A stretch of 64,000 bases of DNA, from positions 1-64,000 of IMG/VR virus record IMGVR_UViG_3300028182_000001. One strand, given 5' to 3'. Shown here one piece after another: positions 1-64,000 of the stretch (position 1 is its first letter; each line of letters begins with the position of its first letter). Source of the stretch: a virus. The notes beneath the pieces are model-generated. The model did no database searches, was not told the origin of the DNA, and worked only from the letters and a program-made list of their open reading frames with translations. Position numbers and translations under genes: made by a program.

Positions 1-151
1 ATCGGGCTACTGCGGAGAATACACAGTGGTTAAGACAGGTGCTACATACTCGTTTGATGGTGCAGGTATGACTCGTAGGAAGATACTACAGAAGTTTTGG
101 GATCGGGCTAAGAAGATTGATCCCAGCATTTCAAACAAAGGGGTGAGATGA
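1..151 (+). CDS. 3' end of hypothetical protein (truncated by window start)
   Basis: Frame 2 open from base 2 to TGA 149-151, overlapping the next ATG (ATGA coupling). Confidence 0.6.
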   Translation, partial: SGYCGEYTVVKTGATYSFDGAGMTRRKILQKFWDRAKKIDPSISNKGVR

Positions 152-357
152 TGATATCATTCAAAGATAGACATACCGCCCACTTAATCTTCGTGGAACA
201 GCTAGACGGTCAGTTCGTAATTGATAAGGATAGCAGAGAACTGTTTGTAGTAAACAAAGCGGATCGTACGAATGTGGAGCACGCACTAAGAAACGGTCAA
301 CATCGTGTGATAGTATGGGATGTTGACGGTAACTTAAAAGCTAAAAACTATCTATAA
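148..357 (+). CDS. hypothetical protein
   Basis: 69-aa ORF, GGGGTGAG RBS, coupled to upstream stop. Confidence 0.7.
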   Translation: MMISFKDRHTAHLIFVEQLDGQFVIDKDSRELFVVNKADRTNVEHALRNGQHRVIVWDVDGNLKAKNYL

Positions 358-372
358 TAGGAGGAAGTTAAA

Positions 373-1080
373 ATGACAAAAACATACAAAGGGTTTGAAG
401 CGTTAAAAAGAATGATGGACGGTTGGATTCAGAAGGAGAAGGAACCATATAACAAGTATACGTTTGAAGATGGAGTTGTTAAGGCTAAGAACCTAGTGAC
501 AGATCGTTATATAGATGTAAACATTAATATTAACCTGTTCTTCAATAATACATTCGTAGACTATGTAGAGCCGTTAGTAGCTGGTGACACAGTTAAAACT
601 ACAATAATGGCTGGTACTCTATATGGTGAAGTAGAAGCAGTATTTGCAGAATTTGGTACAACCTGCTTCCGCTTCAAAGGTAACCACACTCCTTATAATG
701 TGGACAATGCGGTCCGTATCGAGAAATCGGAATTGGACTTGCTAAAGAGAGAAGCTACATTTAAAGAAGCAGGTCGCCAATTGGACGAGTTCCAGTGTGG
801 GGATATTGTACAGTTTACGATCCGTGGTTGTGTGTATGAAGCTAGAGTGATGCAACAAGGTAAAGGTGATCGTAAAATGGTCACGTTTAGTAATGTATAT
901 GCAGGAGGTGTACCTGCTAAAGATATTACACCAGTTAAGTTCGTTACATATGTTGAAGCTACTCATCCTGACTATGTTAAAGTCGATCCAGTAGCTCCCT
1001 GCACTGCTCCAATGATGCCAGGTATGGCAGCACAATTTAACTCACCACTATCGTACGTACAAAGGGAGGAACAACTATAA
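373..1080 (+). CDS. hypothetical protein (possible SH3/KOW-like beta modules)
   Basis: 235 aa, AGGAGG RBS; GDTV/GDIV segments typical of small beta-barrels. Confidence 0.7.
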   Translation: MTKTYKGFEALKRMMDGWIQKEKEPYNKYTFEDGVVKAKNLVTDRYIDVNININLFFNNTFVDYVEPLVAGDTVKTTIMAGTLYGEVEAVFAEFGTTCFRFKGNHTPYNVDNAVRIEKSELDLLKREATFKEAGRQLDEFQCGDIVQFTIRGCVYEARVMQQGKGDRKMVTFSNVYAGGVPAKDITPVKFVTYVEATHPDYVKVDPVAPCTAPMMPGMAAQFNSPLSYVQREEQL

Positions 1081-1558: not shown

Positions 1559-1677
1559 TCAATTCGTTTGGAGGATCGGCCGCAGGATGGCAGAATATTC
1601 AGACTATTCATACTTTGCAGCATTCAGGTATTTAAATGTACTGACTATTCAGAATTGTTTTTCGGATCGGATGTTCT

Positions 1678-2400: not shown

Positions 2401-2418
2401 AAAAGTTTTAAAATGTTG

Positions 2419-7670: not shown

Positions 7671-7896
7671 TGAATGCCGATACGATCCTGTTCTTACGTG
7701 CCGATAGCTCATGCTTCTTTCTCATGTCCATCTCCATTGCCCGTATCTCTCTCCATGTACTGCCTAAAGGGTGGAAGCTTCGATACATGTCACTGCATCT
7801 CCACTCCTCTCCTAAAGGTATATGTAACGGCACACCGTACTTGGTTAACCTAGCGGCCTTAATCTTCGTGTCTAGGGTTATAGACGAGTCTGCCAT
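7654..7896 (-). CDS. hypothetical protein
   Basis: 80-aa ORF, coupled to upstream stop. Confidence 0.65.
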   Translation of the reverse strand: MADSSITLDTKIKAARLTKYGVPLHIPLGEEWRCSDMYRSFHPLGSTWREIRAMEMDMRKKHELSARKNRIVSAFRGLFN

Positions 7897-9630: not shown

Positions 9631-10818
9631 TTAGTTAGCTTTGAAATTGTAAAGTGGTTTAATCGTATGTACGATGTCCATTGTATCTTTCGTGTTCTCA
9701 ACAATCTCATCCATTGGTTTGTATGCCATTGGTGCCTCGTCAATCGTGCTAGTACCTACAGAAGTTGTCCACACGTCTTTCATTGTGTTCTCGAAGTCTT
9801 CTAGTTTGATATTCTCTTTAGCTTTCGTACGGCTCATAAGTCGTCCTGCTCCGTGCGGTGCTGAGAAGTTCCAGTCTGCGTTACCTTTACCTACTGCGAT
9901 AAGAGAACCGTCACGCATATTGATTGGTACAATTATACGTTCTCCTTTTAAAGCAGATACAGCACCTTTACGTAGTACAGAGTACTCCATGTCGATGTAG
10001 TTATGGATCGTTGTAAATTGGTCAGTAATTAACCATCCCATATGAGACACGATTTCATCTACCATTGCTCTACGGTTTTGGGCCGCATAGAACTGAGCAA
10101 TCTTCATATCATGCATATAGTTCTTGAAAGCTTGTCCTTCAACGAATGCGAGTTCTTTCTTGATTTTAGGTTTCTTGATACCACGTAGGGCCGCATGAAT
10201 CTCTAGTTGTCTACCTTCACGTTTTAGTTGTTCAACTAGCTCCTGCTTCGCATCTTTAACGCTCATAAGCTCGTTGTACGCTACACGTTGGTAATGCTCT
10301 GCTACCTGCTTCCCTAGATTACGAGAACCTGAGTGGATGACGATGTATACTTTACCATCTGTATCTTCATTTAATTCAATGAAGTGATTTCCTCCACCAA
10401 GAGTCCCGATGCTTTTCTCTGCACGATCCGTGTTGAATGGTGCAATTACATCTTTTAAGTTTACTAGTTTAGAGAATCGGTGTGCTTTATCACGGATGTC
10501 GTAACCGCTTGGTACGAACTTACGGATTACATCATCCAGTTTATCGAAGTTAATTTCGTCTTTACGCTTGTTGATTACTGCAACCTCCATCCCACAGCCG
10601 ATGTCAACCCCTACGAGATTTGGCACTATCTTGTCTGTAATTGTCATTGTAGTTCCGATTACACAACCTGCACCAGCATGTGTATCAGGCATGATACGTA
10701 TTTTGTTTCCTTCTGTGAACCCTTGGTTACATAGTTCGATTATCTGTCCTACTGTAACATCGTCTACGTTGTCTGTAAATACTTTTGCTTGGTTAAATTT
10801 ACCTTGTAGTTCTATCAT
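9631..10818 (-). CDS. rtcB: RtcB family RNA ligase
   Basis: IMPDTH, GVDIGCG, GTLGGGNHFIE, HSGSR, HNY, RKGA, HGAGR and DEAPMAYK motifs; ATG 10818 after GGAGG. Confidence 0.95.
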   Translation of the reverse strand: MIELQGKFNQAKVFTDNVDDVTVGQIIELCNQGFTEGNKIRIMPDTHAGAGCVIGTTMTITDKIVPNLVGVDIGCGMEVAVINKRKDEINFDKLDDVIRKFVPSGYDIRDKAHRFSKLVNLKDVIAPFNTDRAEKSIGTLGGGNHFIELNEDTDGKVYIVIHSGSRNLGKQVAEHYQRVAYNELMSVKDAKQELVEQLKREGRQLEIHAALRGIKKPKIKKELAFVEGQAFKNYMHDMKIAQFYAAQNRRAMVDEIVSHMGWLITDQFTTIHNYIDMEYSVLRKGAVSALKGERIIVPINMRDGSLIAVGKGNADWNFSAPHGAGRLMSRTKAKENIKLEDFENTMKDVWTTSVGTSTIDEAPMAYKPMDEIVENTKDTMDIVHTIKPLYNFKAN

Positions 10819-10988
10819 TATGATTCCTCCCGTTTCTCTATTGTTCTCATTTCTGTTTTTCCGCACTTATTACAAGCCATAATAATTGTTCGCGATCCGT
10901 CTTCATTCACCTTGTCGTATTCTTTATCGCAGAAACAACATGTATGTTCGAATAAACTCATTAGTCTCGCTATGATAAGACTAGCCAT
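10818..10988 (-). CDS. small Cys-rich Zn-ribbon protein (56 aa, not in ORF track)
   Basis: MASLII...CCFC...CNKCG; AAGGA RBS; TAATG coupling to rtcB. Confidence 0.55.
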   Translation of the reverse strand: MASLIIARLMSLFEHTCCFCDKEYDKVNEDGSRTIIMACNKCGKTEMRTIEKREES

Positions 10989-11321: not shown

Positions 11322-11523
11322 GGCAGAACTTGATGATTATACCTGACGTTCTTTTATGTGAGCAAATGTCCTGAATCCTACGGTTATTTAGTTGTAACTT
11401 CGCAATCGTGTTGTCTAACTCGACTTGCTTTATCGCTTTCACCATCTCTAGCTGGTCCTGTTCTTCCCTAAGCTCATCTATTGTCATGTTAATCCATCTC
11501 CGATCCACATGTGCGACATACAT
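11278..11523 (-). CDS. hypothetical protein (coiled coil plus CxH/CxxC)
   Basis: ORF in run; likely start MTID. Confidence 0.55.
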   Translation of the reverse strand: MYVAHVDRRWINMTIDELREEQDQLEMVKAIKQVELDNTIAKLQLNNRRIQDICSHKRTSGIIIKFCRECGKADFFWSFRG

Positions 11524-11793: not shown

Positions 11794-12054
11794 CTATTCC
11801 CCCTCTACATCTTTACGTGTAACTTCCCACGACTCACGATCCTCTAAGCAATCACCATAACCAACTTCGTCTCCTGGTTCGTAGTAATCATTCATATACT
11901 GGATACATGTGTCACAGTAGTATGTCGATGTTACAGTACCCTCATCTGCGGCCTTAACGCATTGTAGGGTGCTTCCTTTCTTAAAACCTCGTGTACATCC
12001 CCAACATTTACGATCCTTACGAATCTTGACGTGCTTATCTAGTAAAATATCCAT
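11794..12054 (-). CDS. Zn-finger protein
   Basis: RKDRKCWGC...YCDTC. Confidence 0.65.
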   Translation of the reverse strand: MDILLDKHVKIRKDRKCWGCTRGFKKGSTLQCVKAADEGTVTSTYYCDTCIQYMNDYYEPGDEVGYGDCLEDRESWEVTRKDVEGE

Positions 12055-12280: not shown

Positions 12281-12859
12281 TTATTTTTCGTTCTGTGCCG
12301 AAGCTGCTTCTTGGAATGCTTCTTGTAAAGCAGTCAGTCTTCGTGGGTGGTACGCTCGTTTCTTATGTACTTCTAGTTGTTGTTCTACCTGCTTCAGACA
12401 ATTCTGCAAGTCCTTGGCTAGTTTCGGGTTACTTGCGACTAACATTTTAATAGGTGTGGCTATTTCTGTAAAGTTCTTCGCTTGTCGTCTCTGTCTTTGT
12501 AAGGTTATGAGGTCTTCCGTATACTTCACCTTGTCATCGACCGATTCATCGAATAACTCTAACGCATGTAACAGGTCTAACTGCATCTCGTTCATACGTT
12601 TCACATCTTCTGCGGCCAAGTTATACGTTTTAGCGTGTGCAAATATGTTGATAGCGCTCTGTAGGTCTGATATTAGATTAGTAGTGTCATAAGCAGACGG
12701 TGTTAATCCTAGTTCCTCTGCTCGTACTCTCTCTTTATCTTCCTCAGCTACCACACGTAACATATCGTACGCTTCCTGGATATCTGCTTTAACCTTTACT
12801 GTCATTTTTCCTGCTTCTATTACACCTTCGATTAGTTCTGTAGCTCTTACTAAGCTCAT
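12281..12859 (-). CDS. hypothetical coiled-coil protein
   Basis: 192 aa, AGAGG RBS. Confidence 0.7.
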   Translation of the reverse strand: MSLVRATELIEGVIEAGKMTVKVKADIQEAYDMLRVVAEEDKERVRAEELGLTPSAYDTTNLISDLQSAINIFAHAKTYNLAAEDVKRMNEMQLDLLHALELFDESVDDKVKYTEDLITLQRQRRQAKNFTEIATPIKMLVASNPKLAKDLQNCLKQVEQQLEVHKKRAYHPRRLTALQEAFQEAASAQNEK

Positions 12860-12892: not shown

Positions 12893-13165
12893 TTATTCAA
12901 CTAGTGTCCAGTCATTTGCATCTCTATCTCTATCTGAAGGTTGGTACCCCATACATAGAGTGTTTAGTGCGGTCCTTATAACTACTGTTCCTTCGAATCG
13001 TGGCTCTCCAATGTACTCTCCGTACCCATACTTTAAAGAAGCCGACAACTCATGACCTGGTATGTAGTACAAAAACACATCTTTATGCCAAGACTCTCTT
13101 CTAAATTTCTTACCCTCTTCTAATAGAGGGAGAACATTATCATAGTAGTGACAATTCATGACCAT
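12893..13165 (-). CDS. DUF2829 / Tad2-like protein (putative anti-Thoeris sponge)
   Basis: L..GKKFRRESW...FLY and YQPS..D..ANDW.LVE match the DUF2829 pattern. Confidence 0.65.
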   Translation of the reverse strand: MVMNCHYYDNVLPLLEEGKKFRRESWHKDVFLYYIPGHELSASLKYGYGEYIGEPRFEGTVVIRTALNTLCMGYQPSDRDRDANDWTLVE

Positions 13166-49446: not shown

Positions 49447-49866
49447 ATGGCTGAAGATTTACAGAAAGATATCGTACACTTACAGGAAGCATCGCCTGAG
49501 AGAGTAGAGTTAGAGAAGAAAGCAGAAGAACGACAAGTGGTGGACCGCATCATTCGTGGTGTCAATGACGTATTCGACAAGGACTATGACTTACCTGAAT
49601 ATGGACTGAAGTTCACGATTAAGATTAAGGCACCTAACGCAATTGATACAGGGAAGATACACGCTAGAACGGCTGCTTATCTAAGTGGCATGAATAATTA
49701 TGCGAGTGAGTATATTTACCTTGTATACCAAACGCTATCTGCGATCCGAGTTAATGGTGTAGAGACTCCTGACTTCTTAGCGAAGGACGAAGAAATCTAT
49801 AACCTGGACGTACTATACATAATTGGACGTGATTACACGGACTGGTTAAGTTCCTTTCGAAGATAA
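49447..49866 (+). CDS. tail assembly chaperone
   Basis: AGGAGG RBS; synteny before tape measure. Confidence 0.75.
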   Translation: MAEDLQKDIVHLQEASPERVELEKKAEERQVVDRIIRGVNDVFDKDYDLPEYGLKFTIKIKAPNAIDTGKIHARTAAYLSGMNNYASEYIYLVYQTLSAIRVNGVETPDFLAKDEEIYNLDVLYIIGRDYTDWLSSFRR

Positions 49867-50539: not shown

Positions 50540-53500
50540 ATGGCAGGAAATAAACAAGATTATATTATTGAGTTGGACGCTAAGATAGATGGTGCCGTAG
50601 CTAAGTTAAATAAAATCCGTAAGATGATGGACGATATCGAACGTATTCGTGATAAAGGTGCAGACAATAACTACACTGCAAGCACACAAGATATCAACAA
50701 GAATATGCGTGTCATGAAGTTACTTACACAACAGTATAACCAAGCAAACGAGGAACTTAAAAAGTTACAGAGCCAAATCAATAAAACTCCTAAAGGTGAC
50801 AAACGTAACGAGCAACATAAACGTGTACGTGAGGAGCAGAAAGCGATCCGTAGAGAGTACGATAGTACGTTAGGTAAGTTCCGTGAGATTGCTTCCTTCC
50901 AACAAAAATACTCTAAAAACTTCAACGCTACAGTCGGACAAATCAACCTTCCTACGAAAGACTTCGAGAGAACAAAAGAAGTAATTACACAGATGGTAGA
51001 AGAGTCTAACAAGGCGAAGAATAAGTTAGACGAAGTTGTAATGAAGATTCGTGAAGTAAATAAACTTGACAGACGTTCTGAAAGTCTATCACGTAGAGCA
51101 AGTGCATCTAAGTATATGTCATTCCAACAATCTTCTAACTTCAAGAAGGATCGTAACACAGTAGACGGTTATCATCAAGAGAAAGCAGATAACATTCGTA
51201 GAATGACAGAGATGTCAACTTCTGTAACATCCCTAATGAAACAGATTAAAAAGATTGAAGAGAAACCTCAAGCAACAAAAGCCGAGATGGATCGTAAACT
51301 TGAGATGCAAAGAACTATCGAGTCTATGGACAAAGAGTTCGAATCTCGTACTGAATTAAACCGTGTACTAGAACGTACCATTGCCAACATGGAAAGATAC
51401 AACAGTACAGTACAAGGTGTAACAGTTAAGCCTGAACGTGGAACATTTAAAGGTATGGCTTACGAGCGTGCTCCTGCTATCGGTTTAGCAATCACTGGTG
51501 CCGTGGCCGCTGCTCTAGGAAGTCTGTATCACCAAGGGGCTTCTATCGACAAAGGTATGCGACAAGATGAAATCTCTATCGGTCAACGTATCGGTATGGA
51601 CGGATCGCAGTGGAGAGAGGACATCCGTAACAACGCTCTTAACTCAGGTCTGAAAGATAAACTAGGTATGTCAGGTCAAGAGATGATTGGATTCCAAGAG
51701 AATTATCTATCTAAACGTGGCTTCAGTGGTATGCAAGATATGAATGATGCTATGCAAAACCAAGCTATCTTTAGCCGTGTAAGTGGTATCGGTACAGAAG
51801 ATACGAAGTCATTCTATAACACTGTATACGGTGCTGGTCCTGTTAACGGTAAACAAACGAAGGAAATCCAAAACGCATTCCTTGGGGCTATCAAACGTAG
51901 TGGTATGGAAGGTCGAGAAAAAGACCAACTAAAAGCGTTAGATGGTATCTTATCAGGTATGTCTGATGGTCGTTCTATGACGAACGATGAAATCATGAAC
52001 ACAATGGGTCTACAATCCGCTTTAGCTCAAACTGGAAACCGTTCTCTACAAGGAGAAAAAGGTGGAAAGATGTTACAGAGCTTAGACCAAGGTATTCGTA
52101 ACGGTATTGACAATCCGATGGTACGTATGGTATTCGGTCAAGGTACTAAGTATCAAGGGCTATCAGGTCGTTGGGAGCTTACTAAGCGATTGGAAAAAGG
52201 TATCTCGGATATAGACAACGTTAGAGACATCGCATCATTTGCACAGTCTCAAGGTGCTACAAAAGAGGATCAGAACATGAACTTCCACGCCTTTGCTCGT
52301 AATAGCTTAGGTGCCGACATTACCGCTCAACAAGCCGAAGCATTCATGGACGCTTATCGTAAGGGAGACCTGAATGATAAGAACATCCAAGATATCCTGA
52401 AAGAGGATGCAAGTGTCGGTAATAAAGTTTCTAAAGACAAAATGGAAGAGTACAAAAAGTCCAGTGCGGCTACTAACAACCAAAGCGATGCTACTACAGA
52501 GAAACAGGCCGCAGGTATTTATGATATGGGTGAAGCAGTCCGAAAAGCTAATGGTGCATTAAGTGGGATACACCCTGCCGCTTATGCGGCTATTGCGGCT
52601 CTAGGTGCTCTAACTATAGCATTTGCCGCAGCTGCAACGTCATTCGCAATCTCCTCAGGTGTCCGTTCCCTAGCTTCTAGTTCGTTCGGAGGTAAAGGTA
52701 AACGAGGAGGAAGAGGTGGAGGACGAGGTGGCGGTGGAGGAGGAGTAACCCCTCCTATCGTTGGTGGTGGAAGTGGACGTACTTCTACTGGTGGATCGGG
52801 TAGCGGTCCTGTAGCATGGAGACGAAATGCAACAACACCTGGAGCTTCTTCGGCACCTAAGCAAAACTTCTTTAGCAGAATGTTCGGTGGAGGTTCAGGC
52901 GCTTCCTCAGGTGCAGTTGCAGGTGGTACTGTAGCAGGTGCTTCTAGTGGGGGAGGATTCCTTAAAGGAGCAGGTAAAGTTGCAGGTAAGGCTATGTTAC
53001 CAATAGCGGCCATAATGGGTATTAACGAGATTATGAGCGCACCGAAAGAGAAGAAAGGGGAAACTACTGGTTCAGTTGCAGGAGGTATCCTTGGAGGTAT
53101 CGGTGGAGGTATGGCCGCAGGTGCCCTAGCAGGTTCGGTTGTTCCAGGAGCAGGTAACGTAGTCGGAGCTATCATCGGTGGTGTCGGTGGACTTATTGGT
53201 GGTATCGCAGGTGCTTTCGGTGGAGGAAAAATCGGTAGTTGGTTTGACTCTGATTCCGATAAAGAGAAAAAGAAGAAAGAGGAAGCAAAGGCTAAAGCTA
53301 AAGCGAAGGAAGAAAAGGCTAAGGCAGAAGCTAAAGCGACTAGTTCATCTAGCATCACAGGGTTCGGACAACAAGGCGGTACTGTAGCAGGTTACACTGC
53401 AACTGGTATGGCGATGGGTACAACGGCAGGTGTAATGGCTAGTAACCTTGACCCAGGACTAACTAACCAAGTTGTAACTCCTGAAGTAGGTAACGGTGTC

Positions 53501-54391
53501 AACTCTACAAACACGCAAGTAGATAGAGAGAACACAAACACGAAACAACGTACGGAAGTTACAAAGACTGACAACCTTTCTTACGAGCGTGAGAACCTTA
53601 ACATCTACGAAAGAGCGTTAATGAAAGCAGAACAACTTCTAGCTCAAGCTCGTTCTCAAAACGGTATCTTTGGTAACGGTAATGGTGCAGGAGGTGCTGG
53701 TGGCGCAGGTGGAGGAATGGGAGTTACAGGTGGAGGTAAACTGCAAGTATTATCCGCAGGTCAGAAGTGGCAGAACGCAAGTAACCTGCAACAAAGTGAT
53801 TTAGGATATACTGAAGCTACTCTAACTGCGGCCGACCTAGACAACTGGATTAACTCTAAAGCTCCTGAAGGTTCTATGATGCGTGGAATGGGTGCGACAT
53901 TCCTAAAAGCAGGTCAGGAATACGGGTTAGACCCTCGTTACCTAGTTGCCCACGCTGCCGAAGAGTCTGCATGGGGTACATCACGTATAGCCAAGGATAA
54001 AGGAAACTTCTTCGGGATCGGAGCGTTTGATAACAGCCCGTACTCTAGTGCCTACGAGTTCAAAGACGGTGGAGGTACTGCGGCCGAGAAAGGTATCATG
54101 GGTGGAGCTAAGTGGATTTCTGAGAAGTACTATGGTAAAGGTCGTACAACTCTAGACAAGATGCACCAAGCAGGATACGCAACGAACAGTGACTGGGCTT
54201 CTAACATTGCTTCTATCATGGGTGGAGCACCGAAAGGTACAGGTCAAGCAGTTAACGCCACTATCAACGTAAATGTTAAAGGTGACGAGTCTGTATCTAA
54301 GAAGATTAACAACAGTAGTGAAATGAAAAAAGTCGGCAATAACATTGCAGACATGCTCGGGTTCTACTCTAAAGAGATGGTGATGACGTAA
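50540..54391 (+). CDS. tape measure protein with C-terminal glucosaminidase (GH73-like) domain
   Basis: 1283 aa helical and Gly-rich; YGLDP.YLVAHA.EES.WGTS, NFFGIGA.D, YAT..W. Confidence 0.85.
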   Translation: MAGNKQDYIIELDAKIDGAVAKLNKIRKMMDDIERIRDKGADNNYTASTQDINKNMRVMKLLTQQYNQANEELKKLQSQINKTPKGDKRNEQHKRVREEQKAIRREYDSTLGKFREIASFQQKYSKNFNATVGQINLPTKDFERTKEVITQMVEESNKAKNKLDEVVMKIREVNKLDRRSESLSRRASASKYMSFQQSSNFKKDRNTVDGYHQEKADNIRRMTEMSTSVTSLMKQIKKIEEKPQATKAEMDRKLEMQRTIESMDKEFESRTELNRVLERTIANMERYNSTVQGVTVKPERGTFKGMAYERAPAIGLAITGAVAAALGSLYHQGASIDKGMRQDEISIGQRIGMDGSQWREDIRNNALNSGLKDKLGMSGQEMIGFQENYLSKRGFSGMQDMNDAMQNQAIFSRVSGIGTEDTKSFYNTVYGAGPVNGKQTKEIQNAFLGAIKRSGMEGREKDQLKALDGILSGMSDGRSMTNDEIMNTMGLQSALAQTGNRSLQGEKGGKMLQSLDQGIRNGIDNPMVRMVFGQGTKYQGLSGRWELTKRLEKGISDIDNVRDIASFAQSQGATKEDQNMNFHAFARNSLGADITAQQAEAFMDAYRKGDLNDKNIQDILKEDASVGNKVSKDKMEEYKKSSAATNNQSDATTEKQAAGIYDMGEAVRKANGALSGIHPAAYAAIAALGALTIAFAAAATSFAISSGVRSLASSSFGGKGKRGGRGGGRGGGGGGVTPPIVGGGSGRTSTGGSGSGPVAWRRNATTPGASSAPKQNFFSRMFGGGSGASSGAVAGGTVAGASSGGGFLKGAGKVAGKAMLPIAAIMGINEIMSAPKEKKGETTGSVAGGILGGIGGGMAAGALAGSVVPGAGNVVGAIIGGVGGLIGGIAGAFGGGKIGSWFDSDSDKEKKKKEEAKAKAKAKEEKAKAEAKATSSSSITGFGQQGGTVAGYTATGMAMGTTAGVMASNLDPGLTNQVVTPEVGNGVNSTNTQVDRENTNTKQRTEVTKTDNLSYERENLNIYERALMKAEQLLAQARSQNGIFGNGNGAGGAGGAGGGMGVTGGGKLQVLSAGQKWQNASNLQQSDLGYTEATLTAADLDNWINSKAPEGSMMRGMGATFLKAGQEYGLDPRYLVAHAAEESAWGTSRIAKDKGNFFGIGAFDNSPYSSAYEFKDGGGTAAEKGIMGGAKWISEKYYGKGRTTLDKMHQAGYATNSDWASNIASIMGGAPKGTGQAVNATINVNVKGDESVSKKINNSSEMKKVGNNIADMLGFYSKEMVMT

Positions 54392-54433: not shown

Positions 54434-56671
54434 TTGACAACGATTGTTAAACGCTATCCCACATTCGAGATAGAGTTAATCACACAAGACACACCTTATA
54501 TCTTGAAGTACGATACACAGAAACAAATCTCACAGAAGACATTTGAAGAAGCAATTATATCCTTCAGTGTTAAGAATGCTATGGCAGATGATAGTCCTGC
54601 ATTCTCTCTAGTAATCTCTTCTAAAGAGAAGTGGGATAAGATTGTAAATGCGAATGATTTAATCCGTATCAAAGTGTTCCCTGATGTTACAAAGGGTGCT
54701 CCTGATAATCCGTACATCATGGTCGGTATGATTTCCGACATTAAGAAAGAGGGAGAGTACGGTAACGGGACATTATTATACCGTGTAACTGGACAAGCTA
54801 TGACAAAGGCTCTAATCAACTTTGACGTAGGGGTTATCCAAGAAGTAGCGACTATCATTCCTACTATCGGTTGGCTTCCTGATGATGCGGCCAATGGACT
54901 AAAGTTCTCTGCTAACAATGCGGCAGGTATCGGTAACGAACTGATGGAACGATTCATTTATAAGTACGCAGAGTATAAGTTTGCTAACGGTAAAGGACTG
55001 AGAGATTACTTAACTCATAGTTTCTCTAGTTGGACGGAAGATGAAACTCTAGCTGATCCGTCACCATTCATTAACTACCAAGGTAGTTTACGACAATTCT
55101 TAACGGACGTAACGGCAAAACCATTCAACGAACTATTCTTTGAATACACAAAGAATGGACAGTGTGTAGCTCTAATGAGACCGACACCATTCGACCCTGA
55201 TAAATGGGGGCAATTACCTCTGTATCGTTTCACAAGTGATATCGTAGTTCAAGAATCATTCGGTAAAAATGATAATGAAATGTTCTCTGTATTCGTAGTA
55301 CAGGCTCCTAACGTTAACGAGTTCAACAGTATGGACTTAGGTGTATTCCCTAAATTCCATCCTGAGCTAGTTAAACGATATGGCTATAAGCGTTTAGACG
55401 CTCAGAACCGTTATCTACTAACGGCAGGTGTCGCAGGTACCCAACAACCAGGAACGAACGCAGGAACGGGTACAGGGACTACTACACCGTCAGGAAATGG
55501 AACTGGAACAACAAATCCTACACCTGCGGTCCGAACAGAACCTGCAACTGCACAACCTAACTACGAGGAAGTAATTACATTCATTACACAGAATAAACTA
55601 CAAGACCCTGAGATGCTTAGACTTAAAAAGACTGAAGTGTACTCTCAGTTGGTAGGTCAGTTCCCATCAATGGCTCCTAGTCTAGTAAACGGTATTATCG
55701 ACTCATTGAAAGATGGTAAGTTTAGCCGAGAAATCTACACACAACTTGTAACTTCGGCAGGTGGAGGTAACAACGCTGAAGCCGCTAAAGAGAAGGGTGT
55801 AGCCAACGAAAAACTAAACAAGTACACACAAAGACTATTTAACTGGTACTGTGAGAACGCTAACTTCTATGCAGGAGATATTCGTGTATTAGGGAACCCT
55901 GCATATCGTGTGGGATCGCGAGTAATGTACGATGACTTTGAACAGGAGACTGTATGGGAGTTCTATCTAGAGTCTGTACAACATGAATTTAGTTTCCAAG
56001 GTGGCTATACTACTATATTAGGAGTAACAAGAGGTTTACCCGACCAAGGTGCAAAACGATTCAATAACCTATGGGGACAATCACAAGAGTTCAAAGGTGG
56101 ATACTTAGGTGAGAAATCGTTAGAGCAGTTAATCGAAGCAGGTAAAGCTGCTAACCCACCAGGAGGTACAGGTGGAACAGGCGGTACTGGTGGAGGAAAC
56201 TGGGGTGGTGGCTCAGGAAGTGGAGTTGCAATGCAAGCTCTAGCTACTGCACGAGAGATGACTTCTAAACCATCTGTATACGTGTTCGGTGGAGGTCGTT
56301 CAGGTAACAACCCATTCTTAAATTCCCCAATCAAAATTGACTGTTCATCATTCGTATGGTGGTGCTATAACGTACATGGTGTCCAGTTAAAAGGTGGAGC
56401 TACAGGGATGACTACAGACACGATTAAAACCGATCCGAGACTGCAACAAATTAGTGGTCGAGGTTCCGATAAAAAGCAAGCTATGAGTATGATACAGACT
56501 GGTGACATCATCTATTTCGATACGTATAAGCAGGATGGACATGTCGGAATCTATTCAGGTAACGGTAAGTTCATCGGTTCCCAAAGTACCCCAGGTATTC
56601 ATGAAGAGGATTTAAGTACGAGCTATTGGCAAAAAGTTTTTAATGGTCACGTACGTAGGTTTACAGGATAA
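54434..56671 (+). CDS. baseplate hub/tail lysin with NlpC/P60 domain
   Basis: YVFGG, IDCSSFV.W.Y, GDIIYF, GHVGIY. Confidence 0.85.
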   Translation: MTTIVKRYPTFEIELITQDTPYILKYDTQKQISQKTFEEAIISFSVKNAMADDSPAFSLVISSKEKWDKIVNANDLIRIKVFPDVTKGAPDNPYIMVGMISDIKKEGEYGNGTLLYRVTGQAMTKALINFDVGVIQEVATIIPTIGWLPDDAANGLKFSANNAAGIGNELMERFIYKYAEYKFANGKGLRDYLTHSFSSWTEDETLADPSPFINYQGSLRQFLTDVTAKPFNELFFEYTKNGQCVALMRPTPFDPDKWGQLPLYRFTSDIVVQESFGKNDNEMFSVFVVQAPNVNEFNSMDLGVFPKFHPELVKRYGYKRLDAQNRYLLTAGVAGTQQPGTNAGTGTGTTTPSGNGTGTTNPTPAVRTEPATAQPNYEEVITFITQNKLQDPEMLRLKKTEVYSQLVGQFPSMAPSLVNGIIDSLKDGKFSREIYTQLVTSAGGGNNAEAAKEKGVANEKLNKYTQRLFNWYCENANFYAGDIRVLGNPAYRVGSRVMYDDFEQETVWEFYLESVQHEFSFQGGYTTILGVTRGLPDQGAKRFNNLWGQSQEFKGGYLGEKSLEQLIEAGKAANPPGGTGGTGGTGGGNWGGGSGSGVAMQALATAREMTSKPSVYVFGGGRSGNNPFLNSPIKIDCSSFVWWCYNVHGVQLKGGATGMTTDTIKTDPRLQQISGRGSDKKQAMSMIQTGDIIYFDTYKQDGHVGIYSGNGKFIGSQSTPGIHEEDLSTSYWQKVFNGHVRRFTG

Positions 56672-56710: not shown

Positions 56711-58747
56711 GTGGAAGATTTTGACTACACACCACTGTCCTCTATGAGGTTTCAGGCTCAACTAGGATCAGAAGTTAAACGTATGTACAAAGAGGGGGAG
56801 AGCGTAATTAAGCTCTCTCTTGCTAGGGTTACAAAAGTTAACTACAAATACAATACAGTCGAAGTTATGACAACATTACATAAAAACTCAACAGCAAAAA
56901 ACCCGAGTGATAACGGAAGATACTCTGCTAGATTACCAGTTGTGTTCGGTGGACAAACACCTGACGGAAAAGTATACGGTTCTAATACAATCGTTACAGT
57001 CGGATCGTTAGTCTTAATTGGGTTCCTAGAAGGTAACAAAGACCACCCGATTGTTCTAAACATCTATGGTGATGCAGACAATCAATCTATGTTAACACGT
57101 ACAACGATGACAGGTGGAGACGAGTCGGACGAAGCAGTACAACGTGAACTATGGCAGTTATTCACTCTATACCCTTCTATGACATATCAGAACATTGATG
57201 GTCGAGGGAATAAAGAAGTAACGTTCTCAGGTAAATCGTTTTTATACATTACAGATACAGACCCTGGAAACGAATACGTTCAAGATGGACAGTTCGATTA
57301 CATGGACTTACCTAGCTCCCGTTATGCGAACGGTGAATTAATCGAACCAGTATCTCCTCAGTCTCCTACTGTATTATACGTCCATCAAGGGGTGTATGAC
57401 AACCACAGAGTTACATTCTTCTTAAAATCGGATGGAACTCTTCGTGTAGGTAGTAGACATAGAAACGGTAAAGGGATTACATACCAAGAAATGAAAACTG
57501 ACGGATCGTTCTCTATTGTGCAGAAGCACGATACAACAGACCCTGAAGAGATTTCTAAAAAGTTTTCTAAGTTTGAAATTTCAGAAAACGGTGACGTTAC
57601 GATCCAATCTATCGACCACAAGTTAAGCATCACAAAAGATGGTGTCTTAATTGACGGGAAACCAATCGGTTCAGGTGGTGGAGGGGGAGACCTTGAAATC
57701 ATTAAAGACCTACAAGAAAAAGTAGAGGGCGTAACCACTCAGGTAACAATGGTAAACGGTAAGCTAGAGTTCAAGATTGATAAGGTTGAAATCGAGATAG
57801 ACTTGGATAGTTTGCGACAAGAGCAAGAGAAGATGCTAGACAGTATTCGTGAGAAGCTAGATGGACTTACTAGTGCTTTAGCAGCTATGAAAGACTATAC
57901 GATTCCTGCATTCGAGGACGGTACCGTTACTACAGATGAGAAGAACAAAGTTAACAGTCTTCTAGCTACTGTAAAAAACGAGAAAGCGAAGCTAGATGAA
58001 AAATATAGTCAAGTTATTTCTGACCCGTTCCTACCAGCTACATATAAAGACTTACTGGGCATAGCAAAAGGTAACTTAGATAGTAGACACCAAGCGCTAT
58101 TAAATACGATAGAGATTGTTATGTTAGATGGGGTTATCACTCCTGATGAACGTATAGCAGTTGCTCAAGCATTCGATGGGTATAACCAGTCTATCGAAGC
58201 AATGGACGTAGCTTTTAAACAAGCAATGGACTCTATCTTAGAAGCTCGTATTAGAGAAGCACAAGAGAATGCTATGAAGTACCGAGATACAGAGATGCGT
58301 AAAATCGGTTCACAGATTACGCAACTAGCAGACTCTATTACGGCTAAGGTAAGCTCGGAACAATTGTCAAAAGAGATAGAAGACGTTCGTTCTGAAATGG
58401 CTACAAAGGAAGAACAGAAAGAAATTAAGGACACATTGGAACAAGCACAGAAGGACATTGACGAAGCCGTAACAAACCTTCCGTATCGAATTGAGTTGGG
58501 TAGCACCAACGGACTTATCTTCAAGAACAATAGTGTCGATACAGTCCTATACGCAAAGGTATACAAAGGTAAAGAGGAAATTACATCGCAGATTGAAAAA
58601 TCACAATTTATTTGGCAACGTGTATCGGAAGAAGGTACAGGTGATGACGAATGGAATGCGGCCCACAGAGGTATAGGTAGTTCCTTTAAGGCTACACAAG
58701 ATGATGTCCCGAAGAGGGCAACATTCTCATGTGACTTGGACATTTAA
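56711..58747 (+). CDS. baseplate/tail spike-like protein
   Basis: LARVTKVNY...TVEV, G..VLIGFLEG....PIVL OB-like N-terminus; coiled-coil C-terminus. Confidence 0.65.
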   Translation: MEDFDYTPLSSMRFQAQLGSEVKRMYKEGESVIKLSLARVTKVNYKYNTVEVMTTLHKNSTAKNPSDNGRYSARLPVVFGGQTPDGKVYGSNTIVTVGSLVLIGFLEGNKDHPIVLNIYGDADNQSMLTRTTMTGGDESDEAVQRELWQLFTLYPSMTYQNIDGRGNKEVTFSGKSFLYITDTDPGNEYVQDGQFDYMDLPSSRYANGELIEPVSPQSPTVLYVHQGVYDNHRVTFFLKSDGTLRVGSRHRNGKGITYQEMKTDGSFSIVQKHDTTDPEEISKKFSKFEISENGDVTIQSIDHKLSITKDGVLIDGKPIGSGGGGGDLEIIKDLQEKVEGVTTQVTMVNGKLEFKIDKVEIEIDLDSLRQEQEKMLDSIREKLDGLTSALAAMKDYTIPAFEDGTVTTDEKNKVNSLLATVKNEKAKLDEKYSQVISDPFLPATYKDLLGIAKGNLDSRHQALLNTIEIVMLDGVITPDERIAVAQAFDGYNQSIEAMDVAFKQAMDSILEARIREAQENAMKYRDTEMRKIGSQITQLADSITAKVSSEQLSKEIEDVRSEMATKEEQKEIKDTLEQAQKDIDEAVTNLPYRIELGSTNGLIFKNNSVDTVLYAKVYKGKEEITSQIEKSQFIWQRVSEEGTGDDEWNAAHRGIGSSFKATQDDVPKRATFSCDLDI

Positions 58748-58767: not shown

Positions 58768-60177
58768 ATGGTAGTTAGAGCAACAGGTCAGATAACCCTT
58801 ACTGACGTAAACGATGCTAAACAGTTAGTCTTATATTTAAACAGTAATTACAAAACACAGATTTACGATCCAAACGGAGCAACATCATATACACCACACT
58901 TCCCAACTTCTAACCTAGTAATGACTCCTGAGTTATACGTAGCAGGTGGTAATGGTGGTAACATGCTACCATCGGCAGCAATCAAGTCACTATTTTGGTA
59001 TGAAGGTTCCCAAACGGTTACACCTTTAGCCGAGACAGGTTCAGGGACAACACCTAGTGGTTTAACTTACTCACTACCAACAGGGGCAGTAGGGACGACT
59101 GCAAAGCCGTTAACGATTAAGTCTAACCTAGGTTCTTCAACAACTTCACAATTATTTACATGTGTGGTTACATACCTAGACCCTGACTTACAGATGGAAA
59201 CAACGCTAAAAGCTAGTATTGACATCATCAAAATCGTAAACGGTACGGCAGGTTCTAACGGGGTTGACTCTTACTACCTAAACCTTTGGGCACCAGGTGG
59301 AGATGCTATCCGTAACAGTAATGGTAACTTAACATTAAAGGCTGATATGTACAAAGGTGCAGGTGCAGTTACACCTACTGCTTACCAGTGGTATATCCAA
59401 GACCCTACGGCTACAGTCGGTGGAGGAGGAGACGCAGACGGTGGAGCAGGTTGGAGACGTATTAACAACGTTGCAGACCCAACTGCGGCCCCAACGTTAG
59501 CACTAGTTGCTAATGCAAGTTCACAACTAGCACCTGCAACGTACTTCGTTAAGTACACATGGTGTGGGCTATCAGGGGAAACAATCGGATCGGCACAAGC
59601 TCAGTTAGCCGTAACCGCAGGTAACGATTTAAGAGTTACAATCCCTGCTTTCGCAACGAACGTTACAATGGCTAAAGTGTATATCGGTACTGTATCAGGA
59701 ACTCTATTCTACGCAGGAGATATTACAACAAGTGCAGGTAACTTAGTCGTTAAACGTTACGACAACACGGCTGAACCGATTCCAACTTCTTCTAGTACGA
59801 GTATGAACGTGGCACAAATCACGATCCGTAACTGGGCTATCCCAGGTGTTAAAGGATTCAAGTGTGTAACTACTGTAGCAGGTACAAGTACGAAGTTCAC
59901 GGCAGTTATTGTTGTACGTGACTTCCAAGACCCGTTAGTAGTTAACATCATCGGTACAAACGTATTCAAGAACGGACAAGGCTCTCTAACAATGAATGCA
60001 CAATTGATTCAATCGGGTCTAGTAATCTCGAATACAGGTTACACATTCGGATGGTCGTTGTACAAGCCTGATGGTAACTTAATCAAGACGTACCCTGCTG
60101 TAACAGGAGACCAAATTACAGTACCAAGTACAGATGTAGACGCTACGGCTAACTTAGTAGTGGACGCATCTAAGTAG
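58768..60177 (+). CDS. tail-associated Ig-like beta protein
   Basis: ATGQITLTDVND start; T/G/A-rich beta composition. Confidence 0.65.
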   Translation: MVVRATGQITLTDVNDAKQLVLYLNSNYKTQIYDPNGATSYTPHFPTSNLVMTPELYVAGGNGGNMLPSAAIKSLFWYEGSQTVTPLAETGSGTTPSGLTYSLPTGAVGTTAKPLTIKSNLGSSTTSQLFTCVVTYLDPDLQMETTLKASIDIIKIVNGTAGSNGVDSYYLNLWAPGGDAIRNSNGNLTLKADMYKGAGAVTPTAYQWYIQDPTATVGGGGDADGGAGWRRINNVADPTAAPTLALVANASSQLAPATYFVKYTWCGLSGETIGSAQAQLAVTAGNDLRVTIPAFATNVTMAKVYIGTVSGTLFYAGDITTSAGNLVVKRYDNTAEPIPTSSSTSMNVAQITIRNWAIPGVKGFKCVTTVAGTSTKFTAVIVVRDFQDPLVVNIIGTNVFKNGQGSLTMNAQLIQSGLVISNTGYTFGWSLYKPDGNLIKTYPAVTGDQITVPSTDVDATANLVVDASK

Positions 60178-60248: not shown

Positions 60249-60264
60249 AGAAGGATGTGATTAA

Positions 60265-63200
60265 ATGGCAAAGTACAAAGCTACAGGTCAGACGACTATT
60301 TATAATATGAACGATGTACTTGCATCGCTAACTCCACCACCGACACCTACAGAAGGTGCTCTATGGTTGAATGCAAAAGATAATCAATTATATGTTTACA
60401 TAAAAGGTTCTTGGGTAATTTCTGCCGATTACAAAAACTGGGTGAACTCTAAAGGGGATAACCTTGTATCTAACGGTGGAGGTTCTTTAGGAAATAACAC
60501 CAACTTCAGTGTGTTCGAATTTGACGGATCGGACTCTTATTCAGGAGGAGGTTCATTCAAGGATAGTGGGGCCGCAAGTCAGAAACTATCTGATGAGATT
60601 ATCCCTATCGACATGAGTAAAACGTACAAGCTATCTGTGTGGGCTAAAACGAACCCTAACGTAGGAGCTAAATATTACATTGGTGTGTTCGAACATGATA
60701 TGGATGGTCAACCTATTTATGCAGAGCATCATATGTACATTAAGAGTACATTCTCTTCATTAACGCAGGATTTAAAGAACGGGGATACAGTCGTATACCT
60801 AGACAATGTAACAAACTGGTTAAACACTGCGGCCATTCACCAAAGAAAACTAATCTTTTGGGACTACGTAAGTAATACGGGTTACAAATACCAACCATTA
60901 ACTTATTCTCGACACGTATCAATTCAAGACTTGTGGGCAGATGGCTCTATTAACACGACTAACAAAACGATTACATTGAAGGCTCCTTGGAACGGTGGTC
61001 TAGTTAAGTCAGGTACTAAGTTAAGTCAAGGTAGTAGTGGCTCAGGGTTCAAGTACATTGCGGCATCTAACGTAGTCATACCTGGTACTTGGACAAACTA
61101 CTCAGGTACTATCGGTAATTTAGATAACTCAGGAGATGCTGCAACAAATAGTTTCTCATGGGGTACTGCTGGTGTAAAAATCGGGTTCTTAAACAACCGT
61201 GACGTTACAGGAAGTACTGTATGGTACTCTAATATTAGTTTCGGTCTTAACGTTGCAGACCAAGGGCAAGTGGATCAGATTAGCGACTCTCTAGATGCGT
61301 TAGGTAGCGATGGTAAGATTACTCGTTTCGAACGTAGCTTAGTCCGTGGGTATATCGCAGATATTATTGGTAAATTCTTGAATCCTGCCGACTCTATGCC
61401 TACACTATTGGACATTGACAAGGATACATACAACGCAGGTAAACTGTATGCGATCCGTAGAACTGCACGTAAGATTGGGTTAAACCTAGCTACGAGTGCA
61501 AACTACAAACCAATGGGTGATGCGTATTCCGCTTTAGTAACATACTTGTCAGGACTATCTCCTAAACCTTGGGATACTAGCTCGACTGCAAACATCAACA
61601 TCGACAGAACCGTGTGGAACACGAAATGGAATGACTACTACAACCGTTACGCTCTATTCGAAATCGAGGTTCAGGATCGTCAGAAAGAGTACACGGAACA
61701 AAAAGTAGGAGAAATGAAAGACGAGACGATTGCGGCCATTAGTACGGCAGGTAATCACGATACTGTTAACTACACTAACCCTGTAACTGTTAAACCACCT
61801 ATTGCGACTTTGGGACTCCCTGAATTTGAGGGTAATCATACGGATAGTTGGGAATTACCTGGTCAAAACTTAATACCTAAGACAGACACAAAAGTTTACG
61901 GACTAGGTAACTTCATCACTAATGGTAGCCCGTTAAGTATAGACAACACAAAGGTGTACGATGGGAAACCGACAATAAAAATAGACACGACAACGAGTAT
62001 AGGGGGAATTAAATACAACGGTTTCATTCCGTTGAAACCTAACACTACCTATACTTATAGCGTTATGATGAATCCTACGGTTTCTCCTGTGACTAGCAGT
62101 AGTAGCCCTATGCACATGTGGTTAAGTCCAGATGGTATAAACTCAGGTCACTTAGAAACTATCGTAAAATACTCGACAACTATACCTGCAAATACGTGGA
62201 CACAGGTATACTCAACATTCAAAACACCTAATGGTTTACCTGTACTTTATTGGTGTCCATTCATTTACTTCTCAGGTAGCCCTGTAGGTGCTATAGTCAA
62301 TGTCTGTAATTTCAAGTTAGAGTTAGGAGACACTGCGAACTCTTGGGCACCTATGCCTAGCGAAATGTGGGCAGGGTCGGGAAACCGTATCCGTCCTGTA
62401 ACAAACCCGTTATTCACTAGCGGAACAGACCTTACTATTTGGGGTAAATTCTACGGGGATGGGACGAATAATGATAAGTTCTACTGGAACACAAATGGTG
62501 TAGCTATTAAAGAGAAAAAATGGATGGATGTTGCTCTTAATGATAAGCAGAACTGGGCGTTCTCTACCAACGGTCTATCGACTAACGGAGTCAACAGAAT
62601 CCTAAACTCTAGTTGTAACAACATGCAACCTTACATGTTTGACAATTCGAGTACAGGAGGTACAGTAGGTCGAGCTACAACAAGTTACGCAGGAGACTAT
62701 CTTGTGCTAACATCTACAGACGCAAGTGATAGTTTCTACCAAGTCGGTACATACGACATGAATTTACACATGTTCACTGTAGGGCAGACAGTTACATTCT
62801 CAGCAGATGTAAACTGTGAAATTGCAGGAGCGTATATTTCTGTTTGGCATAATGACGGAACAAACTGGATTGAGAACAAAGGGGACGCTAACTCTGTAGG
62901 ATCAGCTAACACATGGCAACGTCTGTATAAGACATTTACGATCCCAAGTAACGCAAAAGGGATGTTCGGACGTATTTACTTCCCTAGAGGTACGGCAGCT
63001 ACAGGTAAGAAAATGAACATCCGTAAACTACAGTTCGAGTCAGGAAGTACTGCAACACCTTGGGTTAACACGAGTCTTGTAAAAGTAACTCGTGTAAGAG
63101 CTGATGGTTTTGCGTATGCCAACGCAAACAGTAATTCACTAACAGTAGTTAAATCTGATGGGACGATATTAGATAAGGACGGGCAACTACACGCAAACAC

Positions 63201-64000
63201 ATACTCAACTAGTGGAACTCTTGATAAAATTTGGCTTTCTATTGACAACAACGATAGTGGTTGGGCTGAAGCGTATAGTCCTAGCAAGGAGGATATTAAT
63301 GCTTACTTCTTAGGTTGGAGAGTATGTAATGGTACCTTCGGAGGTCTGTATCCAGGCTCAGGAACTAAGCAGTGGTACCCAGTGGGAGACAAAGATTTAT
63401 CTCGTGCTACTGTAGCAGGTAACACGGCTCCAACAGAACCATCACCTTCAATCAGTGATAAGTCTATCAACTACTACCAAGTTGTCTACCAACTTGTGGA
63501 CGCAGTTCAGGAGACAGTTGATTTTGATGGTATACTAGAGTTATTGGCAAGTGACAACGTTGTAAGTACATACTTCCCTCAGTGGACTCCACCAATCACA
63601 AAAGGGACTATCAAGTATGGTACGAACTTAGCTACAGTCAACCAAGACACACGTTACATCATCCCGTCTATGGTAAAACGTATCTCTAATGCAGAGCAAA
63701 AGATTACAGATGACTCTATCACGAGTACCGTATTCAACTCAAGAGAATACACTCTAGCTCTGAAGAACAAAGCAAACGCTAGTGACTTAGGGAACCTTGC
63801 TACTAAAGACGAACTAGGGAACGTATCAGGTGCAGTAGATGGTAAGATTAAAGATGCTATGGACAAGCTAGACTTCACTCCGTACGCATTGAAATCTGAG
63901 TTGAAACAAACTGCTACAGACATCACGGCTAAGTTCTCTGCAACAGGCGGTATGAACTTACTTAAAAACTCTATCGGTTACAGTGACCTAGACTTTTGGA
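60265..64000 (+). CDS. large tail fibre/receptor-binding protein with carbohydrate-binding-like modules (runs past window end; absent from ORF track)
   Basis: ATG after AAGGATG; MAKYKATGQTTIYN...; same frame reads LKQTATDITAKF...GGMNLLKNS at 63901; KLELG..A..W.P and QFESGS.ATPW motifs. Confidence 0.8.
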   Translation, partial: MAKYKATGQTTIYNMNDVLASLTPPPTPTEGALWLNAKDNQLYVYIKGSWVISADYKNWVNSKGDNLVSNGGGSLGNNTNFSVFEFDGSDSYSGGGSFKDSGAASQKLSDEIIPIDMSKTYKLSVWAKTNPNVGAKYYIGVFEHDMDGQPIYAEHHMYIKSTFSSLTQDLKNGDTVVYLDNVTNWLNTAAIHQRKLIFWDYVSNTGYKYQPLTYSRHVSIQDLWADGSINTTNKTITLKAPWNGGLVKSGTKLSQGSSGSGFKYIAASNVVIPGTWTNYSGTIGNLDNSGDAATNSFSWGTAGVKIGFLNNRDVTGSTVWYSNISFGLNVADQGQVDQISDSLDALGSDGKITRFERSLVRGYIADIIGKFLNPADSMPTLLDIDKDTYNAGKLYAIRRTARKIGLNLATSANYKPMGDAYSALVTYLSGLSPKPWDTSSTANINIDRTVWNTKWNDYYNRYALFEIEVQDRQKEYTEQKVGEMKDETIAAISTAGNHDTVNYTNPVTVKPPIATLGLPEFEGNHTDSWELPGQNLIPKTDTKVYGLGNFITNGSPLSIDNTKVYDGKPTIKIDTTTSIGGIKYNGFIPLKPNTTYTYSVMMNPTVSPVTSSSSPMHMWLSPDGINSGHLETIVKYSTTIPANTWTQVYSTFKTPNGLPVLYWCPFIYFSGSPVGAIVNVCNFKLELGDTANSWAPMPSEMWAGSGNRIRPVTNPLFTSGTDLTIWGKFYGDGTNNDKFYWNTNGVAIKEKKWMDVALNDKQNWAFSTNGLSTNGVNRILNSSCNNMQPYMFDNSSTGGTVGRATTSYAGDYLVLTSTDASDSFYQVGTYDMNLHMFTVGQTVTFSADVNCEIAGAYISVWHNDGTNWIENKGDANSVGSANTWQRLYKTFTIPSNAKGMFGRIYFPRGTAATGKKMNIRKLQFESGSTATPWVNTSLVKVTRVRADGFAYANANSNSLTVVKSDGTILDKDGQLHANTYSTSGTLDKIWLSIDNNDSGWAEAYSPSKEDINAYFLGWRVCNGTFGGLYPGSGTKQWYPVGDKDLSRATVAGNTAPTEPSPSISDKSINYYQVVYQLVDAVQETVDFDGILELLASDNVVSTYFPQWTPPITKGTIKYGTNLATVNQDTRYIIPSMVKRISNAEQKITDDSITSTVFNSREYTLALKNKANASDLGNLATKDELGNVSGAVDGKIKDAMDKLDFTPYALKSELKQTATDITAKFSATGGMNLLKNSIGYSDLDFW

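Follow-up and report, generated by a model that had tools for sequence, protein, structure and literature searches.

The stretch of DNA analysed here (the window) comprises the first 64,000 nucleotides of IMG/VR record IMGVR_UViG_3300028182_000001, and is the start of a complete virus genome of 158,403 bp with direct terminal repeats and a G+C content of 40%. Its structural module is 87–91% identical to that of the Bacillus phages Bcp1, JBP901, BCP8-2, Deep Blue and BC-VP (genus Caeruleovirus, Herelleviridae), and the phage is a myovirus of the Bcp1-like (Caeruleovirus) type, with hosts in the Bacillus cereus group. The features considered are the tetranucleotide GGCC, which occurs in this genome only as GCGGCC or its complement GGCCGC (together termed the GC context), the related pentanucleotide GGWCC (W being A or T), and two adjacent genes for predicted C5 DNA methyltransferases, located outside the window.

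GGCC and GGWCC sites in the window and the genome

An earlier reading of the sequence alone had listed about 29 GGCC sites in the window, all in GC context. Exact counting gives the same number and the same positions: 29 sites, 17 as GCGGCC, 12 as GGCCGC, and none otherwise. In the whole genome 72 of 72 GGCC sites are in GC context, as are 59 of 59, 60 of 60, 51 of 51 and 63 of 63 sites in four further Caeruleovirus genomes, which together with the studied phage form the five-genome set used below (pooled, 305 of 305). The sequence-only reading had also proposed a comparison with a codon-aware null, for which synonymous codons were permuted genome-wide in 200 replicates, preserving protein sequences and codon usage. 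This null predicts 71±8 GGCC sites in the genome, with 6.4±2.1 of them (a fraction of 0.089) in GC context; observed were none of the ~65 sites expected out of context, and 11-fold more sites in context than expected. The probability of this bias is ~10^-76 for the genome (72 of 72 at 0.089) and ~10^-30 for the window, and GCGGCC is the most over-represented hexamer of the genome (72 versus 6.5 expected, z=25). The GGCC pattern is genuine and vastly exceeds what chance would give.

On the plus strand of the window, GGCCGC is found at 1578..1583, 10081..10086, 10189..10194, 20211..20216, 26127..26132, 40136..40141, 45495..45500, 51505..51510, 52507..52512, 53113..53118 and 60570..60575, and within a composite site at 40379..40389 that is described below. 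Its complement GCGGCC, representing GGCCGC on the minus strand, is found at 7853..7858, 11948..11953, 12612..12617, 14385..14390, 15396..15401, 17337..17342, 23458..23463, 25543..25548, 34203..34208, 53006..53011, 53828..53833, 54080..54085, 54887..54892, 58658..58663, 59485..59490, 60829..60834 and 61732..61737. Comparison with orthologous positions showed that the site at 14385 is kept in all five Caeruleovirus genomes, while others read differently in related phages: the site at 15396 reads GCTGCT in the outgroup ortholog, that at 40136 reads GGTCGC in relatives, that at 53113 reads AGCAGC or GGCAGC, and that at 54080 reads GCTGCT, a synonymous Ala-Ala spelling.

GGWCC sites follow the same rule, albeit less strictly. 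In the window 9 of 11 are flanked by GC, with two exceptions as noted before, and in the genome 20 of 26. Eight of the nine flanked sites have the form GGACCGC, on the plus strand at 23916..23922, 34995..35001 and 49542..49548, and on the minus strand (as GCGGTCC) at 709..715, 12969..12975, 23024..23030, 52803..52809 and 55526..55532. The ninth, GCGGACC at 30317..30323, is GGTCCGC on the minus strand and the only site of this type in the genome. The two exceptions are both GGTCC within GCTGGTCC. That at 11454..11458 corresponds to minus-strand CAG-GAC-CAG (Q-D-Q), and the encoded residues do not dictate it. The other, at 51836..51840 on the plus strand, lies in a gene for a 1283-residue tail protein and is read in frame as GCT-GGT-CCT-GTT (A-G-P-V), the GGT-CCT at 51836-51841 encoding Gly-Pro. 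Of the six GGWCC sites in the genome that lack protection, five (11454, 67102, 109071, 113837 and 138200) occur as GGACCAG/CTGGTCC or GGWCCTGG, and thereby overlap words resembling CCAG or CCWGG; this may be a further protective overlap, or chance.

Methyltransferase genes and related phages

The sequence-only reading had suggested that C5 methyltransferases be sought elsewhere in the genome. A Pfam search of the complete genome identified two adjacent phage genes of this kind, at 98,638-99,624 and ~99,650-100,315. The first encodes a protein of 340 residues (P0001) that matches PF00145 over its full length (E=1.4e-51, 176 bits, profile positions 2-324 of 324) and TIGR00675 with 165.9 bits, and that carries the catalytic motifs ELFAGYGS (I), FPCTD (IV) and ENV (VI). 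The second encodes a protein of 221 residues (P0002) that matches positions 1-113 only of PF00145 (E=3.2e-8, 33.8 bits with a cut-off of 22), including motifs I-VI. Its catalytic motifs are ELFAGTRS, SPDCT and ENP, and the Asp inserted before the Cys is invariant in the P0002 family, a very large and highly conserved family (70–84% identity) of orphan genes in phages and prophages of Firmicutes.

The closest solved structure to P0001 is M.HhaI, to which residues 4-325 can be aligned (E=1.8e-30), a span that takes in the glycine-rich loop in the recognition domain. P0001 has one variable region of HhaI size, and tandem target-recognition domains were not found in it. The AlphaFold model of P0002 matches M.HaeIII, DNMT1/3 and M.HhaI with a probability of 1.0, and consists of the C5-methyltransferase core with a minimal recognition region. 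Both genes are neighboured by genes for an HU-like DNA-binding protein and a DNA polymerase, with no endonuclease gene adjacent, and both proteins are predicted to be orphan C5 DNA methyltransferases. Searches of Pfam, NCBIfam, PDB and 5.8 billion proteins yielded only generic "DNA cytosine methyltransferase" names and no specificity by homology. No N4/N6 methyltransferase and no Vsr endonuclease was found in the phage genome. Very-short-patch repair was considered as a cause of GCGGCC enrichment and rejected, since the genome lacks a gene for Vsr and shows no depletion of GCGGTC.

Among 36 full-length relatives, gathered via the capsid protein, only four carry an ortholog of P0001, and these four show GGCC solely as GCGGCC. 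Apart from three near-identical metagenome contigs, no other genome in the comparison has this pattern: most relatives have no GGCC at all, and a few have 10–23 sites per 20 kb without flank preference. The nearest relative genome lacking a C5 methyltransferase (G005, the outgroup in all comparisons) contains no GGCC, GGWCC, CCGG or CGCG. Since GGCC is tolerated only in the methyltransferase-carrying clade and is zero in the nearest relative without the enzyme, the tolerance and the methylase cassette appeared together. The earlier claim that GGCC and GGWCC were purged, the survivors overlapping the target of a C5 methyltransferase, is supported in this respect: such enzymes are encoded in the genome, and the pattern is confined to their carriers. 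One phage with an apparent GC-context bias and no methyltransferase (locus L020, genome G007) was discarded as a counter-example, as GGCC is not avoided in that phage.

The methyltransferase cassette itself differs among the Caeruleovirus genomes. At the corresponding locus (L002; 98165-101530 of the studied genome), BC-VP has an extra C5 methyltransferase of 419 residues upstream, and the JBP901-like and the Hobo-like genomes carry an additional one of 333 residues downstream, the gene for which is interrupted by a TAG codon in Bcp1. The GGCC rule, and a GATC rule described below, are unaltered across these differences. BC-VP was also considered as a natural recognition-domain swap, which was rejected because its additional enzyme is a third methyltransferase next to orthologs of both P0001 and P0002, and the pattern is unaltered.

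The probable protected word and its alternatives

The sequence-only reading had proposed that a four-base CCGC/GCGG (AciI-type) C5 methyltransferase methylates every CCGC, allowing overlapping GGCC and GGWCC to survive. It is true that CCGC overlaps every GGCC that survives and 20 of the 26 GGWCC sites, and that the genome encodes C5 methyltransferases. However, CCGC itself does not behave as a protected word. Its density is about half that in all sister clades, and in all five genomes 14 of the 16 NNCCGC contexts are depleted 2–10 fold relative to the outgroup, while only GGCCGC (72 here, versus 6.9 in the null and 0 in the outgroup) and GACCGC (34 here, versus 12.6 and 18) are enriched. AACCGC, CACCGC and TACCGC together fell to ~40, versus 121 in the outgroup, whereas HGACCGC is undiminished (15–23 versus 18). 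The rescue of GGWCC is unequal as well: GGACCGC occurs 19, 16, 16, 14 and 15 times in the five genomes and GGTCCGC 1, 0, 0, 0 and 1 times (80 versus 2 in total), where the null predicts 1.2 and 3.3, respectively. Moreover, CCGCG is not rescued from the avoidance of CGCG (3 versus 47 expected), and CCGC out of context is less conserved (28–34%) than random hexamers (43–50%).

Codon choice provides a further argument. When Ala-Ala is spelled GCC-GCN, the preceding base is G in 22 of 31 cases, versus 13% at comparable third codon positions (p=3e-13), and GCG-GCC (28 versus 1.3 expected) is preferred over GCG-GCA/T (GCG-GCA, 4 versus 8). Neither preference would be expected if AGCCGC, TGCCGC and GCGGCW were methylated equally well. 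The NNCCGC counts, the GGACCGC asymmetry, the retention of HGACCGC and the G before GCC-GCN lead to GRCCGC (R being a purine) as the protected word, which is thus probably G-R-C-C-G-C rather than CCGC. A methylase for GCNGC (Fnu4HI-type) was rejected as an alternative, since it leaves the rescue of GCGGWCC unexplained and, compared with the null, GCNGC shows no depletion outside Ala-Ala frames.

A parallel is seen for GATC. Of its 292 sites in the genome, 268 have the form GGATCR (GGATCG 185, versus 66 in the null, and GGATCA 83), while the BamHI, BglII, BclI, PvuI and BstYI forms of GATC are essentially absent. In the five genomes, survivors of otherwise purged sites often overlap the C of GGATC (CGCG 30 of 36, NruI 9 of 9, ClaI 5 of 6, CGACG 7 of 15 and CGCCG 5 of 10). 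Examples from the window are GGATCGCG at 55913..55920 on the plus strand, and CGCGATCC at 10891..10898, where the surviving CGCG overlaps the C of a minus-strand GGATC. This is strong, if indirect, evidence that the C of GGATC is a modified cytosine, and the rescue of CGCG, NruI, ClaI and CGACG sites indicates that overlap with a modified cytosine would be a principle that operates in this genome. Several sister clades retain GATC but have no GGATC at all, which suggests that restriction enzymes of these hosts attack GGATC as well. The spacing of GGATC is more even than random (coefficient of variation 0.62–0.70 versus 0.99).

The CGCG survivors also bear on which base of GRCCGC may be methylated. 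In 4 of 24 distinct CGCG survivors rescued by GGATC, GRC is found directly 5' of CGCG on the other strand (GRCCGCG), where ~2% would be expected (p ~1e-3), and one further survivor has GGCCGCG only. An example is the composite plus-strand site GGCCGCGATCC at 40379..40389, in which GGCCGC, a surviving CGCG (40382) and GATCC overlap, such that CGCG is covered on both strands. Because only the second C of GRCCGC falls within CGCG, this CpG cytosine is the better candidate, and may be the putative methylated base; the evidence is thin. The candidate differs from the target of the HaeIII-type methylases invoked in the sequence-only reading, which canonically produce GG(m5C)C (m5C being 5-methylcytosine), and matches the GGWC(m5C) reported for a GGWCC system of B. 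cereus (PMC3526280).

The two protected words and the two methylases fit together. The likeness of P0001 to M.HhaI extends through the recognition loops and suggests a target in which C is followed by GC, by which GRC(C)GC can tentatively be assigned to P0001, and GGATC, equally tentatively, to P0002. We propose the following mechanism. Hosts of the B. cereus group carry many restriction systems, the sites of which would have been purged from the phage genome. One of the two phage methyltransferases, most likely the HhaI-like P0001, would methylate the asymmetric word 5'-G-R-C-C-G-C-3' of about six bases, probably at its CpG cytosine. A GGCC within GGCCGC, or a GGACC within GGACCGC, would then carry a methyl group on one strand and escape cleavage, while GGCC and GGWCC outside GRCCGC would be lethal and hence removed. 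That a phage methyltransferase marking GRCCGC protects the overlapping GGCC and GGWCC sites is, in our opinion, the best explanation of the data and a fairly probable one. The fuller scenario, in which an orphan C5 methyltransferase of a virulent phage has GRCCGC as an asymmetric specificity not described before, a second one acts at GGATC, and the genome has been rewritten such that lethal four- and five-base sites exist only inside these words, is put forward more tentatively, as slightly more doubtful than probable.

Several observations weigh against GRCCGC methylation. GTCCGC is depleted more strongly than other NTCCGC words (0–5 copies, 3 here, versus 36 in the outgroup, with GTCCGA and GTCCGT normal), and a separate hazard at GTCCGC could explain the scarcity of GGTCCGC without any purine requirement. 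CCGC in ACCGCH, AGCCGC and TGCCGC is about neutral relative to the codon-aware null, its depletion being clear only relative to the outgroup. Both points would be compatible with the CCGC methyltransferase, which we nevertheless consider unlikely in view of the counts given above. In addition, if the methylated base is the CpG cytosine, GGCC would become GGC(m5C), which is not known to block HaeIII, and the host enzyme concerned would need to be one other than HaeIII; hemimethylation has to suffice for protection; and we know of no restriction or modification enzyme of GRCCGC specificity. A GACCGC-specific avoidance, which would indicate an endonuclease for GRCCGC, was not seen in sister phages without the methyltransferases.

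The methyltransferase-bearing phages of the comparison all belong to one clade, so that the co-occurrence with the GGCC pattern is a single evolutionary event. More distant carriers do not extend it. No bias to GGATC or GCGGCC was seen in a faecal phage (P0002-like, 62% identity), a PinkBerry phage (47%) or Streptococcus phage Javan131 (P0001-like, 50%), and in 74 IMG/VR contigs with genes of the P0002 family the pooled number of GATC sites within GGATC was 1371 versus 1485 expected. As these carriers lack the GGATC signature, P0002 could not be tied to GGATC.

Two further alternatives were considered. GCGGCC could be selected for a role in itself, for example as a signal for protein binding, recombination or packaging, with other GGCC purged independently. 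Its rank as the top over-represented hexamer would suit such a function, as would the even spacing of the neighbouring GGATC motif, which suggests a role beyond protection. However, GCGGCC is distributed without preference for either strand (40 versus 32 in total, and 36 versus 34 when sites are oriented by the coding strand), by which a Chi-like or other oriented signal was also rejected, and its spacing is not significantly regular (coefficient of variation 0.76–0.88 versus 0.98±0.12, as for control words). Its conservation (47–55%) is only marginally higher than the 43–50% of random hexamers, and sites turn over among close relatives. Its enrichment is fully accounted for by the recoding of Ala-Ala away from GCWGCN, and the escape of such sites from GGCC restriction would be left unexplained. 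We regard an independent function as quite improbable, somewhat more so than a CCGC methyltransferase. Least probable of all, and hardly credible, is that methylation plays no part, host enzymes sparing GC-flanked GGCC or translation favouring the codon pair GCG-GCC. Ala-Ala codon pairs do account for 50 of the 70 coding sites, but enrichment of the hexamer is seen whatever the frame or strand, and it depends on a G as the last base of the codon before. Furthermore, relatives that avoid GGCC and lack the methyltransferases have no GGCCGC either, and in relatives without GGCC avoidance the site occurs with every kind of flank.

Alanine pairs, known systems and wider site avoidance

The sequence-only reading had named Ala-Ala codon pairs as an explanation that would overturn its proposal. 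As a description of where the coding sites lie this holds, but it does not explain the pattern, since the codon-aware null still expects 65 sites out of context; the protected word gives rise to the Ala-Ala bias, and not the other way round. Ala-Ala dipeptides are halved in this phage (140 versus 276 in the outgroup), and where this genome has GCGGCC, the orthologous sequence in relatives and outgroup is mostly GCWGCN. GCW-GCN pairs number 68 versus 112 expected from codon usage, out-of-context GCS-GCN pairs 22 versus ~24, and the in-context form 50 versus ~3.6. CAGC/GCTG is the most depleted tetramer of the genome (321 versus 761 in the null and 880 in the outgroup), with all flanks and in the Caeruleovirus clade only, and together with the depletion of CCGC this reads as an avoidance of C-M-G-C; we know of no four-base restriction specificity that explains the CAGC/GCTG depletion. 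CCCGC has likewise been eliminated in this clade only (6 versus 106). Every spelling of Ala-Ala holds either CAGC/GCTG or CCGC/GCGG, both of which are counter-selected, and the protected form, GCG-GCC or G|GCC-GCN, therefore looks the only safe one. This would lead to the 11-fold over-representation of GCGGCC, beyond mere tolerance.

The purge also reaches the proteome in another way. Gly-Pro dipeptides number 6 here versus 102 expected, 2–4 in the four relatives, and 0 in the outgroup versus 108 expected, because GGN-CCN always spells GGNCC; Pro-Gly counts are normal (57–88). If the interpretation is correct, restriction can almost abolish one dipeptide and halve another proteome-wide.

Restriction systems documented for B. 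cereus ATCC 10987 recognize GCWGC, GGWCC and ACGGC, and a multispecific prophage methylase of this strain covers GGCC, CCGG, GGWCC and other sites (PMC3459991, PMC3526280). Orphan phage methylases are recognized as an anti-restriction device (reviewed in PMC12707154), and those of SPR, phi3T, rho11 and SPbeta, as well as M.BceSV/BCE_0393 of B. cereus ATCC 10987, are phage-borne C5 methyltransferases without an adjacent endonuclease that pre-empt host restriction at sites including GGCC, GCNGC and GGWCC (PMC3459991, PMC12707154). P0001 and P0002 are likewise orphans, beside a DNA polymerase gene. However, the SPR/phi3T-type enzymes are multispecific proteins of ~440–500 residues that contain an extended series of target-recognition domains; since their substrates are the restriction sites as such, their phages have no need to purge GGCC. 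P0001 and P0002 are short (340 and 221 residues), and the longer, asymmetric target proposed here would cover only a subset of GGCC, the remainder being purged; the absence of GGCC outside GCGGCC indicates that GGCC as such is not protected. From the monospecific family of M.HhaI (GCGC), with which P0001 aligns through the target-recognition region, it differs in its upstream recognition loop and in its presumably asymmetric target, methylated on one strand, and GCGC has no protected or otherwise exceptional status here, occurring 92 times with various flanks.

Overlapping dcm or CpG methylation blocks AvaII and Sau96I sites, which is known as a laboratory nuisance. The same principle, by which the methyl group from an enzyme of another specificity blocks a shared cytosine, appears here to have evolved into a putative genome-wide rule deciding which sites are permitted. 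Avoiding sites and methylating its own DNA are commonly regarded as alternatives by which a phage escapes restriction. In this phage the two appear coupled, in that small contexts of safety are set by a long recognition word, and synonymous and even non-synonymous choices are organised around them. Motifs with m5C are hard to obtain from SMRT (single-molecule, real-time) data. If the interpretation holds, the specificity of an uncharacterised m5C methylase could be deduced from sequence, and the approach would be applicable to any phage with context-dependent site survival. A literature search found no paper on Caeruleovirus methylases, conditional site survival or dipeptide purging.

As in other phages with restriction-site avoidance, short palindromes are depleted throughout the genome, with CCGG absent, CGCG present five times, and some thirty 6-bp palindromes at 0–3 copies, dozens of them at zero. 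Unlike the usual avoidance, that of GGCC is flank-conditional, has the permitted context raised, is readable as the footprint of a methyltransferase, and extends to the proteome. The restriction activities of the B. cereus group predicted to limit these phages are directed at GGCC, GGNCC, GATC, CGCG and CCGG, and at CAGC-type and CCGC-type sites; phages of the Caeruleovirus type are under consideration for biocontrol. Some non-palindromic words are almost gone as well, both here and in the outgroup, namely CCAGA/TCTGG (1), GAGGC/GCCTC (3) and CGACG/CGTCG (3). Finally, sister clades (loci L011, L013, L018-L022, L039 and L067) each have their own avoidance profile, such as GATC kept with GGATC at zero, no GATC, no CCGG or no CGCG, and these profiles look like clade-specific records of host restriction repertoires.

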